Shown: positions 5,607 to 49,282, counted from the first letter of the stretch. The stretch is 64,000 nucleotides of DNA from an uncultured Verrucomicrobiota bacterium (GCA_964616045.1 CAZTTU010000001.1:9684-73683); one strand, 5' to 3'. Program-made: numbers and translations. Notes: generated by a model not told the origin, from the letters alone.

Positions 5607-5629
5607 AGCGGATGACCGCTGGGTTTTTT
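5607..5629 (+). terminator. Candidate intrinsic terminator
   Basis: AGCGG-AUGA-CCGCU hairpin followed by GGGUUUUUU. It lies about 250 nt downstream of the Sel1-protein stop. Confidence 0.45.
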
Positions 5630-5835
5630 ACCCTACTTGGCTGCGTAAATCACACGCCCTGGAACGTAATAATAAGAAAGGGGCCTTGCCTTCGATGCTG
5701 GCCGTCAGGCCTTGACTGGAAGTCGTAAGGCAGAGATTGGGCCCCACCTGGAACACAGTTCCTAGGGCCTGTACAGCGCGGCTGGGCGGGGTAATTTTTT
5801 TGTATCCAACGCCCAGGCACGCTACAGTCACCAGC

Positions 5836-43943: not shown

Positions 43944-44963
43944 TTATTCAATGATTGCTCGCGCTTCTGCTTGAACACATTCGGCCAATTCATTAGGCGA
44001 AAGAACCTTGGCCTGACTTCCCCAGCTAAGGATCCATCGCTTGATGTCCGCCAAGTGACTCAAGCTCATTCGTAGCTCCACTTCACCATTTTTCAACTCC
44101 TTGATTTCCTGTGTCGGATGCCAATTCTTTTCCCGGATAAGGGGCGCAACATTTTTGTTGAATTTTATTCGTATTTCATATGATTCATTTCCCTTAAAGA
44201 CACCAAATGAACTGGAGAGATAGTTGTCGAGGGAAAAAGAAGCCGGCCGGACAAATACTTTGCCAGTGGTTTCCGCAGCCTCAATCCGCGCGGGAACAAA
44301 GGAGCGTATATCTTGCTGCTTGTAATCAAATGCGTATAGATACCATTCATTGTTGATGTTTGCAATTTGATAGGGGTCAATGGTGCGCTCTTCGGGTTTA
44401 TGATTTGGTTTTTTATACGATATTTTGAGTTGCTTAGATTTGGCAGTTGCCTTGCATATTCTATCAAACAACTCGATCTCCACTTCCGATCCAACTGTGT
44501 GGCGAAAACTCAGAGCCTCGTCCCATTCATTGAGGTGAATATTGACCGCATCAGGAAGTGAATCAGAAATTTTTTTGAAAGCCGCGGAAAGCCGTTTCTC
44601 AAAAACTGTACCCCTATAATTTTGCATGGCCTTTTCGGCTATCAACATGGCAAACAATTCGCCTTCGTTAACCTGCAACATAGGAAAAGAGTCAACTGGC
44701 CTTGTGTATTTGAACCCATTAAAAGCTGCGTCAAATTCGATCGGCAAATCCCAGCGATCGCGCATAAACCGGATATCACGATGAATGGTTTTGGTGCTTA
44801 CCTCCATTTTTTGCGCAAGCGTACTTGCATTTGGGTAGTTCCCACGCCTGACCGATTCGTGTATCTCTACGATCCGCTCCAAAGGGGGGCGAGAGTGCAG
44901 CACGGGCGATTGGCCACGTTTTAATTGGGCTGGATATTTCCTGCTTCCCCTGGCCTTTGCCAT
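43944..44963 (-). CDS. HTH + WYL domain transcriptional regulator
   Basis: N-terminal HTH (NASTLAQKMEVSTKTIHRDIRFMRD). WYL core NNEWYLYAFDYKQQDIRSFVPARI. C-terminal extension. Confidence 0.8.
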   Translation of the reverse strand: MAKARGSRKYPAQLKRGQSPVLHSRPPLERIVEIHESVRRGNYPNASTLAQKMEVSTKTIHRDIRFMRDRWDLPIEFDAAFNGFKYTRPVDSFPMLQVNEGELFAMLIAEKAMQNYRGTVFEKRLSAAFKKISDSLPDAVNIHLNEWDEALSFRHTVGSEVEIELFDRICKATAKSKQLKISYKKPNHKPEERTIDPYQIANINNEWYLYAFDYKQQDIRSFVPARIEAAETTGKVFVRPASFSLDNYLSSSFGVFKGNESYEIRIKFNKNVAPLIREKNWHPTQEIKELKNGEVELRMSLSHLADIKRWILSWGSQAKVLSPNELAECVQAEARAIIE

Positions 44964-46276: not shown

Positions 46277-47284
46277 TCAACCACTTGGATCCCGTACAGT
46301 AAGCTCAGCCACGATCGCCCTCGATTCTTCCGCTAGTGGCGTGCTGAGATATCGCTCGCCCGTAGACGGGGCCACAGTGACAATCATTTTACCAGCATTT
46401 TCAGGCCGACGGGCGACTTTCAGCGCCGCTGTCACGTTTGCTCCTGAAGAGATCCCACACAGAATGCCCTCTTTTTTGGCCAATTCGCGGGCCATGGAAA
46501 ACGCATCATCGTTGCTTACCCCGATGCATTCGGTTATTTGTTTACTGCCATCTTCACTCTTGATGTGCAAGTTCTCAGGCACAAACCCAGCGCCTGTGCC
46601 TTGAATCTTGTGTGGCCCCGGCGTAAGTTCCTCGCCAGCCAGTTTTTGTGATATTACCGGTGAATCTTCCGGCTCCACGGCAATAGCTTGGAAACTGGGC
46701 TTTTTGGCCTTAATGACCTCTACGCATCCCGTTAAAGTGCCCCCGGTACCAACACCTGCCACTACAATATCAACCCCGCCTCCGGTGTCTTCCCAAATTT
46801 CCAAAGCAGTTGTTTCGCGATGAACCCTTGGGTTTGAAGGATTTTTGAATTGTTGCGGAACCCAGGAATTTTTGGTTTCTTCAGCAAGTTTTTCAGCCAT
46901 GGCAATGGCACCCTTCATTCCCTTTGCTGCTGGAGTCAGAACCAGATCAGCACCGAGCATCGCCAGCAGTGTGCGCCGTTCCACCGACATGCTCTCAGGC
47001 ATGGTGAGAATAAGTTTGTAACCCTTGGCAGCGGCGACAAAAGCCAGCGATATCCCGGTATTACCACTAGTAGGCTCGATAATCACAGTGTCCTCCGTGA
47101 GTGTGCCATCGGCTTCGGCCGCCTCGACCATAGACATCCCAATGCGATCCTTGACGCTGGAAAGTGGGTTGAAAAATTCGCACTTAAGTAACACGGTGGC
47201 ATCAATGCCCTCGGTTATATTATTTAGCCGAACGAGTGGGGTGTTGCCCACAGTCTGCACGATATCGTCATAAATTTTACCCAT
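46277..47284 (-). CDS. cysK: Cysteine synthase A (O-acetylserine sulfhydrylase)
   Basis: [13 protein letters not shown]-lysine motif and [10 protein letters not shown]. 335 aa. Confidence 0.93.
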
Positions 47285-47306
47285 GGTGTGATTTGGTAGT
47301 ACGGGG

Positions 47307-47335
47307 AATTGAGCACATATGTACTCAATTGAGCA
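47307..47335 (-). promoter_or_regulatory. Direct repeat TGCTCAATT x2 flanking a near-palindrome, upstream of cysK
   Basis: Exact 9-nt repeat (plus strand AATTGAGCA) at 47307-47315 and 47327-47335, with starts 20 nt apart. The intervening sequence contains the ACATATGT palindrome. It lies 23-51 nt upstream of the cysK ATG. Confidence 0.3.
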
Positions 47336-47364
47336 AGTGTTTTGAGCTTCGAAATGTTACTAGC

Positions 47365-47404
47365 CAAACAAAAAGTCCCTGCCAGACCGAAGTCCAACAG
47401 GGAC
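47365..47404 (-). terminator. Intrinsic terminator (minus strand)
   Basis: Minus strand reads GUCCCUG-UUGGAC-UUCG-GUCUGG-CAGGGAC followed by UUUUUGUUU. Confidence 0.8.
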
Positions 47405-48600
47405 AAATTGGGGGGTGGGCGTTCGCTTAACTCGCTCTTCCCCGTTGCAACCATTAGGCACCTGCAATTCAGGTCGGTTGCTCCCCGACGCTATTCTCCG
47501 TGACTTGCGGAGTTATCGGCCTCATAGCAGGGCCGCCCAAGTCCTCACGGCACTTGGATCATTGGGTGAGGTTTATTTGCCCGCTTCAGCCAGTGGTTGC
47601 AGCCACTGACCTGCGGACCAGGCCGGGACATGAAAGTGAAACATTCATCTCCGAGCCATCTGGCAAAGGTCGGCCACCACTTTTGGTGGTGCGTTGGCCT
47701 GTGCCACGGGTCTCGCCTCTTACCCCTGAGGTCACCATTCATTCACTTGGCAGCGCTGCATTTTTTGCATCGCCACCGGGGCGGATAGTTTTCACGATCC
47801 TGTCTTGGATCAGTGTCTATCCCGACGGAAACCCCAGCTTTGTCCCTCTTTTCAGAGGATTTCGTCTGGCTAGCCATTTCAAGCTAATTTTTGATTTCCG
47901 CCGCGCTAATTTAACAGTAGGCGACCTGCACCTTTTAGGCAACTGTGTTCAACTCAAGCCTGAAGTGGGCTTGAGCATCTTACTCAATTGCACCCCCCGA
48001 AGGGTTTGCAACCGGGTCGAAACCTGTTCTTAATCACGCCCTATTGCTCCGAAAAGCATCGAGCGTTAACCGCAAACATGCATCAACCGACTCAGGGCGT
48101 CTTCTTTGGAATTTGCGCATTCCGCACCCCTAACCTCCCAAACGCATATCGGCCTTTTCGCGTATCGACAGTGCGCGAACACTATCGTGCATTTGGGTGA
48201 ACTTTGCCATCTCCACATCTGGCTATCCCGCAACTCTACTCAGCCTGCCAGTCACCAGAAGCAACTTTTCTGTCCTGAGCCTAGACGCGGACCAATATGT
48301 TTCAAAGGGGGCAAGCGTATTAGCCCCGCCTGCCCTTTCACCCGGTTTCCCGGGCATTATCATTGGAAGCCTCCGCACGGTAAACGTACCTCGGCTTCTG
48401 TTCTTTCAAGGAACCGTTGCTAGACTAACATATATTCACGGGGCATCCACTAATTGTTTTGAACAGCTTTTTCACACCCATTGTTAAAATGACTGGGTTT
48501 ATTAACAGAAAAACACTGGTATTTGCTCAACGTAACGCACCCTGTGAATTAACGCTGCACTCCCTCACACCGGAAGTGTGATGGCTTGTTAACAAGTGCG
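47405..48600 (-). ncRNA. Candidate large structured non-coding RNA, unassigned family (boundaries approximate)
   Basis: No credible ORF on either strand. The minus strand is about 60% purine in the lines I counted. It carries multiple GAAA/UUCG-capped hairpins and nested helices when read on the minus strand, and a terminator immediately at the 3' end. Confidence 0.45.
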
Positions 48601-48640
48601 TTTTTAGTGAGGTGGTGCGCGAGCATTTTCGCGCGAAAGC

Positions 48641-48736
48641 CTACGCGGCTGCTTTCTTGCCCTTCTGGGCCTTCTTCCGCTTGATATATATAGCGCGCCG
48701 TCTTCGCTTTTGGATTTTATTGGTTTGCTGCCCCAT
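48641..48736 (-). CDS. Possible 31-aa ultra-basic peptide
   Basis: Hand translation gives MGQQTNKIQKRRRRAIYIKRKKAQKGKKAAA, then a stop. A GCGCGA/UCGCGC hairpin follows. No SD sequence, and only 45 nt from the divergent lipoprotein ATG. Confidence 0.25.
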   Translation of the reverse strand: MGQQTNKIQKRRRRAIYIKRKKAQKGKKAAA

Positions 48737-48781
48737 GATTGATCTTTACAGGATTGATTATTAAGTTTTGTTTTTCCAAAT

Positions 48782-49282
48782 ATGAAACGGGTCACCATTT
48801 GCTGCAATGTCTTTTTTTTGATTATTTCAGGATGCAGCAGCCTGAGCACAAGCAAAGTCAGGATGGCTTTATTTGTTGAGCAAGAAAGTGGCCGAGGAGA
48901 GGCGGTTGTGGAGATGAAGGTGTTTAGGGCAAGCCCCAAGGTGTTTTTTGTAGCCTCTAATCCGGTGCTCGAGGTAGGTAAAGGGGTGCTAAATGGAGCG
49001 ATCTTGAGGGAGGGCTCCGACAAGGTGCTTTCTTTAGAGCTCCACTTCACCTCTCGAGGGAAAGCCTTACTTCAAGATATCACAACACGCTATCGCCAGC
49101 AACGGCTGTTTGTGGTGGTGGCTATGCCTGACGAGGCGGATAAGAAGCGGATTGTTTCTCGATGTATAGGTGTGTATTACGTTCAGAAAACAATCGACGC
49201 AAATATGTTCCAATTTACGCCTGACACGAATGAAGCGGAAGCAATTGAAATTGTAAATGGATTAAACAAGGCTCTTCGATGA
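48782..49282 (+). CDS. Lipoprotein with stand-alone SecD P1-head-like domain
   Basis: Lipobox FLIISGC. LELHFTSRGKALLQDITTRYRQQRLFVVV..FQFTPDTNEAEAIEIVNGL parallels EIHFTLDAIGANKFAKITDRH..RLLAVVRV..GQITGIDSMKESHEIAASL in the SecDF of this same window. Confidence 0.6.
   Translation: MKRVTICCNVFFLIISGCSSLSTSKVRMALFVEQESGRGEAVVEMKVFRASPKVFFVASNPVLEVGKGVLNGAILREGSDKVLSLELHFTSRGKALLQDITTRYRQQRLFVVVAMPDEADKKRIVSRCIGVYYVQKTIDANMFQFTPDTNEAEAIEIVNGLNKALR

Follow-up and report, generated by a model that had tools for sequence, protein, structure and literature searches.

A probable stand-alone gene for the large structured MISL RNA in an uncultured Verrucomicrobiota bacterium, with a conserved 5' box, stem and terminator outside the Rfam model

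OLE is a large ornate bacterial RNA of about 600 nt that is confined to one lineage, is inherited with the chromosome, lies in an operon with oapA, the gene of its protein partner, and is found in a membrane-associated ribonucleoprotein. ROOL and GOLLD are large multi-helix RNAs of 600-800 nt or more, with stable tetraloops and multistem junctions, to which no cellular role has been assigned. The latter two often occur near tRNA genes and in prophages (PMC5737381), and all three form homo-oligomers consisting of RNA only (PMC12286853). A different point of reference is provided by 6S RNA, RNase P RNA and tmRNA, which are products of stand-alone, usually single-copy and vertically inherited genes possessing their own promoter and terminator, and which act through their fold. 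Here, we describe a locus matching the MISL RNA family (Rfam RF03079) on the minus strand of a 64,000-nt stretch of DNA (the window) from an uncultured Verrucomicrobiota bacterium (GCA_964616045.1, CAZTTU010000001.1:9684-73683). We present evidence that, with a probability of roughly 90%, this locus constitutes a stand-alone gene, the product of which is the large structured non-coding RNA MISL of Verrucomicrobiota.

MISL shares with ROOL and GOLLD the size class, the many helices, the stable tetraloops and the multistem junctions, as well as the lack of an assigned cellular role; it differs from them in its housekeeping neighbourhood, in having no phage, plasmid or viral match, and in its seeming restriction to one phylum. 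Large, ornate, confined to one lineage and inherited with the chromosome, it is similar to OLE, but it has no protein-gene neighbour conserved across the phylum and does not match the OLE model. Its organization as a stand-alone gene with a predicted promoter and a terminator of its own, usually present in a single copy and vertically inherited, and its likely action through a fold recall 6S RNA, RNase P RNA and tmRNA, to which, however, it has no similarity in sequence or structure; the window contains a separate 6S RNA at 5627-5796. MISL is among the largest bacterial structured RNAs without an assigned function, and literature on it appears to be scarce. The family reportedly originates from Weinberg et al. 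2017, the main text of which does not mention it. In the literature that we searched, 'MISL RNA' appears in the Ribonanza paper alone, as a chemical-mapping substrate taken from Rfam.

An earlier note on this DNA, made from the sequence alone, had proposed a large structured non-coding RNA of unassigned family, read from the minus strand and ending at an intrinsic terminator. The full-length Rfam match described here and the covariation among 59 sequences bear out the RNA, its strand and its terminator, and the RNA proves to be a member of a catalogued family. Scanning the whole window against Rfam 15 at gathering thresholds returned two matches, MISL and 6S RNA. The MISL match (cmscan; 47418-48362, minus strand) reaches 469.1 bits, well over the gathering score of 274.6 (E ~1e-142), and spans model positions 1-751 of 751 without truncation. 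When the Rfam structure was mapped onto the window sequence, 155 of the 171 mapped consensus pairs were G-C, A-U or G-U. The window copy is thus a further member of RF03079, and a standard Rfam scan suffices to annotate the locus; the earlier note had itself anticipated that a confident Rfam match would remove the novelty and confirm the RNA. With permissive filters (cmscan, E up to 1), a search of both strands of 47200-48800 returned MISL and no other Rfam family. The covariance models of GOLLD, ROOL, OLE, HEARO and raiA had no match in this interval at that threshold, nor did those of RNase P RNA, tmRNA, SRP RNA and group II introns, in agreement with the earlier failure to recognize signatures of these last four; additionally, ARAGORN called no tmRNA. 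The resemblance to GOLLD, ROOL and OLE suggested by the earlier note therefore holds for size and ornateness, and does not extend to a model match or to a phage or operon context. The second match in the window, 6S RNA (RF00013; 5627-5796, plus strand), scores 48.9 bits, barely over its gathering score of 46.4.

Relatives were collected by an exact-pattern scan for two conserved MISL blocks in 185,579 species-representative genomes. The scan yielded 74 stretches, which represent 73 distinct sites because one stretch (L049) re-reads the site of another (L010). Every site but one is labelled Verrucomicrobiota, with members of the Verrucomicrobiales, Limisphaerales/Pedosphaera, Opitutales, Methylacidiphilales and 'subdivision 6'. 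In an Rfam test of 19 loci, 15 contained a full-length MISL above threshold (277-542 bits), and 58 full-length copies of 742-948 nt were delimited by a profile search. The closest relative is found in a Limisphaerales metagenome-assembled genome (MAG; locus L002), and its RNA is 74% identical to that of the window. The 58 copies and the window copy, 59 RNAs in total, were aligned by plain MAFFT, on sequence only and without fitting to structure. Standard pairs fill 80.6% of the Rfam pair cells in this alignment; sliding the 3' partner by 1-3 columns lowers this share to 36-42%. Changes on both sides are seen in 140 of 171 pairs, whereas the slid controls give 78-98. We conclude that both the RNA and its structure are genuine and maintained by selection. 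Homologs and compensatory changes in their helices, for which the earlier note had suggested looking, are thus both present.

Two observations on the distribution of MISL are recorded here. The sole site with a label other than Verrucomicrobiota (L020, CAYTLD010000137.1) is a full-length MISL on a 5.5-kb contig of a MAG assigned to the Blastochloridaceae (Alphaproteobacteria), a label that is probably a binning error. Two Opitutales MAGs each possess two MISL copies (L011/L031 and L038/L073) on separate contigs with differing flanks, and the Rfam scores of L011 and L031 are the same; these double copies could result from recent duplication, gene conversion or an assembly effect.

The features of the locus are listed in Table 1. 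The window copy has in common with the rest of the family its helices, the conserved blocks GGUAAGAGGCGAGACCCGU, CCUGCUAUGAGG and GCGUCGGGG, and its phylum. The MISL core occupies 945 nt against 751 model positions, mostly because of two clade-specific insertions. The fold of expansion 1 is slightly better than that of shuffled sequences (z = -1.8, single sequence), and expansion 2 folds with -46.4 kcal/mol (z = -4.9), one of its arms being capped by a UUCG loop. In 14 near-clade relatives the inserts are similar in length and highly divergent in sequence, and compensatory changes have kept both the apical hairpin of expansion 1 and the tetraloop-capped hairpin of expansion 2. The inserts thus behave like peripheral expansion segments. 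Copies at three loci of 'subdivision 6'/Methylacidiphilales (L004, L015 and L016) measure about 890-900 nt and have expansions of their own. The long-range helix that closes the 3' domain is 99-100% paired across the 59 sequences.

Table 1. Features of the MISL locus in the window, listed in the direction of the RNA; positions are counted from the first nucleotide of the window.
Feature	Position	Strand	Description
-35-like hexamer TGGATG	48444..48449	-	Part of the predicted MISL promoter; weak consensus match; placed by homology
-10-like hexamer TAGTCT	48422..48427	-	Putative; would predict a transcription start at ~48415/48414
5' box GUUCCUUGAAAGAAC	48400..48414	-	Near-palindrome; family consensus GUUCYUUGAAAGAAC; outside the Rfam model; predicted start of the RNA
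Stem P0	48366..48398	-	GAAGCC 48398-48393 / GGCUUC 48371-48366, enclosing a variable hairpin; outside the Rfam model
MISL core	47418..48362	-	RF03079 model positions 1-751
Expansion 1	48219..48293	-	Loop insert of ~75 nt in the third model hairpin; counterpart in the model 5 nt (cmscan alignment)
Expansion 2	47985..48087	-	~103 nt separating model positions 178 and 179 (cmscan alignment); two hairpin arms
Long-range helix	47564..47726	-	47726-47716 / 47571-47564; closes the multi-hairpin 3' domain, which includes conserved GGUAAGAGGCGAGACCCGU; Rfam consensus
Candidate extra helix	47410..47443	-	GGGG 47443-47440 / C-run 47415-47410; minimum-free-energy fold; brackets the last model hairpin and passes the model 3' end
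Intrinsic terminator	47365..47404	-	13-bp stem 47404-47375, UUCG loop, then UUUUUGUUUG

The individual hairpins that had been picked out by eye lie at the positions given for them, and most belong to the family structure. CCCGG-GAAA-CCGGG (48341-48354) is the first hairpin of the MISL model, UCCUCU-GAAA-AGAGGG (47844-47859) and the 8-bp stem CUCAAGCC/GGCUUGAG (47953-47975) correspond to model hairpins, and CCC-UUCG-GGG (47995-48004) falls in an insertion relative to the model. A proposed three-tier nested helix is upheld in part: its two inner tiers are covarying helices of the Rfam model, whereas the outer tier, CUGGGG/CCCCGG, is absent from the model and unconserved, being paired in just 17-78% of the relatives' sequences. 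The minimum free energy (MFE) of the minus strand is -383.3 kcal/mol (z = -5.55 against shuffled sequence) and that of the plus strand is -332.8 kcal/mol (z = -3.92). The minus strand therefore has structure beyond chance and folds better than its complement, supporting the polarity that had been read from the loops. The purine skew invoked for the same purpose is present but modest, the plus strand being 43% purine over 47418-48362, and it is not diagnostic alone, since the value for the neighbouring minus-strand gene cysK is similar (44.9%).

Rfam's MISL model omits three elements that are present throughout the family: a 5' box, a stem that we call P0, and the terminator. The model begins at GGAUAAU (48362), and conservation extends further upstream. 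Of the 60 loci in which the 5' end is covered, 59 have the box on the same strand as MISL, at a distance of 24-99 nt ahead of the model start; the box contains about 2 bits of information at 11 of its 15 positions and occurs once in the whole window. When the window sequence is folded by itself, GUUC and GAAC of the box pair as a 4-bp hairpin around a 7-nt loop. Its conservation is asymmetric, in that T6 and T7 are invariant while the mirror positions 9-11 vary. A search for covarying partners of the variable box positions yielded isolated columns only, confounded by clade, and no long-range partner of the box. P0 occupies the spacer between the box and the model start. Among 53 distinct spacers, 85% form a P0 helix of at least 4 bp with their own arms, compared with 31% when arms of different sequences are combined, and raising the limit to 5 bp gives 60% and 14%, respectively. 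The arms are of about 19 different sequences, for example AGAGT/ACTCT, ACGGT/ACCGT and GGATC/GATCC. Furthermore, the MFE fold of 48414-48340 (z = -3.8) contains the box hairpin, then P0, and then P1. The asymmetry of the box, together with the covarying stem that adjoins it, favours a role for the box at the level of RNA.

Upstream of the box, sigma-70-like -35/-10 pairs peak sharply at a position where the -10 hexamer ends 7 nt before the box (57 distinct upstream flanks), and the closest relative reads TGGACA-16-TAATTT-7-GTTCC at the positions aligned with the predicted promoter of the window. If the RNA starts near 48414, then 48415-48640, which the earlier note had included in its RNA candidate, would be promoter or regulatory DNA. 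Two other candidate promoters were rejected. A promoter scan proposed a site at 48384-48356 (TTTACC-17-GATAAT), the -35 hexamer of which lies in the variable P0 hairpin; its start would fall inside the covarying helix P1, and the conserved GAUAAU therefore belongs to the RNA. The TTGAAA within the box would serve as a -35 hexamer, but it is followed by no -10-like sequence 16-18 nt downstream, and the adjacent GAAC is invariant.

The 3' end of the gene is marked by the terminator. It lies where the earlier note had placed it, and all 59 distinct MISL 3' flanks (59/59) contain one, a GC-rich hairpin with a T-run, which together start 9-15 nt past the model end. The candidate extra helix near the model 3' end shows compensatory variants in a few relatives (UUGGAA/UUCCAA and UGGGA/UCCCG); its own arms form 4.1 bp and foreign arms 4.4 bp, so that this comparison does not discriminate between them, and the helix is plausible without having statistical support.

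The MISL gene of the window is embedded in chromosomal housekeeping genes. Downstream and on the same strand lie cysK (PALP), rho, a WYL/WCX regulator and SMC; upstream and divergently oriented are a 166-residue open reading frame (ORF), which had been called a lipoprotein gene and to which no family is assigned, and genes for an M23 peptidase, an aminotransferase and TsaD. This tsaD-to-SMC gene order around MISL is common to about 18 near-clade loci only, and in the closest relative the flanking CysK, Rho and WYL-domain proteins are 81-96% identical to those of the window. MISL genes of other clades have as neighbours prolyl oligopeptidase, L25, L9, BipA, HrpB, an SNF2 helicase, adenylosuccinate synthetase (purA) or a symporter, and clustering of the flanking ORFs revealed no neighbour gene common to the whole phylum. 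Searches of IMG/VR and of 50,697 phage and 72,556 plasmid records gave no match, and the 64-kb window has no tRNA genes. This evidence indicates that the MISL gene is chromosomal, vertically inherited and unlinked to any single protein gene. Within this neighbourhood, the WYL/WCX-domain helix-turn-helix regulator (43944-44963, minus strand) is situated between rho and SMC, a placement conserved in the near clade. At the three 'subdivision 6'/Methylacidiphilales loci named above, a gene for L25 lies about 100-150 nt downstream of MISL on the same strand, with that for L9 about 2 kb further.

The interval between cysK and the divergent ORF had been described as free of credible ORFs. The description is correct for ORFs of at least 60 residues; a conserved shorter one is found just beyond the 47365-48640 range for which the claim was made. 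It encodes a highly basic peptide of 31 residues, MGQQTNKIQKRRRRAIYIKRKKAQKGKKAAA (48641-48736, minus strand), and is located just upstream of MISL on the same strand. Six near-clade loci (L018, L040, L055, L056, L065 and L074) have retained the ORF, with synonymous changes, and there it is followed by a clear terminator; it is absent from the remaining loci examined and has no Pfam or NCBIfam match. It may represent an unannotated small protein. In the window, the hairpin GCGCGA-AAAUGC-UCGCGC (48619-48640, minus strand) directly follows its stop codon and has no U-run, so that, in this genome, transcription of the small ORF might continue in the direction of MISL. The segment between the small ORF and MISL (approximately 48450-48610, minus strand) contains repeated TTCACAA/TTGTGAA motifs of the TGTGA type, which are also seen in near-clade loci, and a perfect hairpin, UCACAC-UUCC-GGUGUGA; a conserved TGTGAAAAAG lies about 20 nt upstream of the MISL -35 hexamer. 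The TGTGA-type motifs and TGTGAAAAAG may be transcription-factor sites serving MISL or the small ORF.

These observations suggest the following model for MISL expression. A sigma-70-type promoter comprising the two hexamers of Table 1 would start transcription at about 48414 and give rise to a transcript of about 1,050 nt, extending to about 47366. This RNA would begin with the near-invariant box GUUCYUUGAAAGAAC, followed by the covarying stem P0 and by the 945-nt MISL core, enlarged by its two clade-specific arms, and transcription would stop at the terminator, upstream of cysK. The promoter-like peak and the universal terminator lend indirect support to the expression of MISL as a discrete non-coding RNA. 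We infer that MISL is transcribed from its own promoter and acts in trans. Since helices, junctions and a long-range closing helix are conserved over about 750 nt and no neighbour is conserved, action based on the fold appears to be most likely, and we give even odds to the proposal that MISL operates in trans as a folded RNA, either as a scaffold or partner of protein or as an RNA with a biochemical activity of its own. A role as an antisense regulator or as a cis leader is unlikely. The invariant 5' box would represent a specific recognition element, contacted by a protein or engaged in a tertiary or intermolecular RNA contact. A bolder proposal, which we regard as a long shot, casts MISL as an RNA machine, self-assembling or catalytic, in which the box drives either the recruitment of a dedicated protein or RNA-RNA homodimerization, leading to an assembly of RNA only like those formed by ROOL, GOLLD and OLE.

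Several points weigh against this reading of the locus. The transcript and both of its ends are predictions made from sequence, and the promoter hexamers of the window match the consensus poorly, at 3 of 6 positions each. In a sub-clade represented by locus L018, another 25-30 nt or so separate the predicted promoter from the box, which is therefore not always at +1. The outer positions of the box are invariant, so that covariation cannot separate an RNA element from a DNA operator. Finally, the gene context points to no partner protein, ligand or target, and the function proposed is a judgement from general properties.

Other interpretations of the region account less well for these data. The overlapping ORFs of 60-177 residues on the plus strand, and the weakly similar ORFs found at the same position in some relatives, are what might be expected of the remnants of a decayed protein-coding gene, yet the ORFs of the relatives range from 94 to 241 residues or are missing, the two longest of the window (177 and 105 residues) have no Pfam match, and the compensatory double changes seen in 140 of the 171 helix pairs are not a product of coding constraint. 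Conservation of the RNA encoded by the opposite strand accounts for the similarity among plus-strand ORFs, and we rejected a pseudogene as having next to no chance of being correct. An RNA of a phage or other mobile element, such as GOLLD or ROOL, or a group II intron without an ORF, would be of similar size class, and the paired copies in the Opitutales MAGs (L011/L031, L038/L073) could be taken as a sign of mobility. This extremely improbable origin is at odds with the lack of any match in phage, plasmid or IMG/VR records, with the absence of tRNA genes from the window, with the housekeeping neighbours and clade-level synteny, and with the intron, GOLLD and ROOL models, which remain unmatched at E up to 1. 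The position of MISL about 80 nt upstream of cysK and in the orientation of cysK and rho, an arrangement kept in about 18 near-clade loci, would suit a giant cis leader, that is, a riboswitch or attenuator controlling cysK-rho. Such a leader is very improbable, given that a strong intrinsic terminator precedes cysK and has a counterpart in 59 of 59 family members, that unrelated or convergent genes follow MISL in other clades, and that 750-950 nt far exceeds the length of known leaders.

The two remaining alternatives concern how a stand-alone MISL RNA, or its box, might work. MISL carries the Rfam type label 'Gene; sRNA' and has the stand-alone gene, predicted promoter and terminator of a small RNA, but conventional base pairing would be expected to conserve one short seed, whereas conservation here extends across about 750 nt of structure, a pattern seen in fold-acting RNAs such as RNase P RNA, 6S RNA and OLE; no target can be proposed, and we consider this mode of action unlikely. 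The 15-bp box could alternatively be a DNA operator for a dimeric transcription factor bound at or just after the start site. Its near-palindromic 7-1-7 layout (GTTC..GAAC), its location at +1 to +15 or about +26 to +40 from the predicted start, and its occurrence at MISL alone are all compatible with an operator. The half-sites are similar to the TGTTC/GAACA half-sites that Erill et al. 2016 are said to have described for Verrucomicrobia LexA, although the half-site spacing is 7 rather than the 4 that LexA reportedly has. T6 and T7 never vary while the mirror positions 9-11 do, and the box adjoins the covarying RNA stem P0. An operator is therefore a doubtful explanation of the box, if one to be kept seriously in mind, and we favour its interpretation as an element of the MISL RNA.

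The analysis of this locus adds to the Rfam description of MISL a predicted start, an invariant 5' box with the covarying stem P0, a universal terminator that fixes the 3' end, and a description of clade-specific expansions. The limits from box to terminator define a full-length construct and could improve the family model. If MISL is indeed an RNA machine of the kind outlined above, Verrucomicrobiota would possess, throughout the phylum, a ribonucleoprotein or RNA-only complex whose biochemical role is new.

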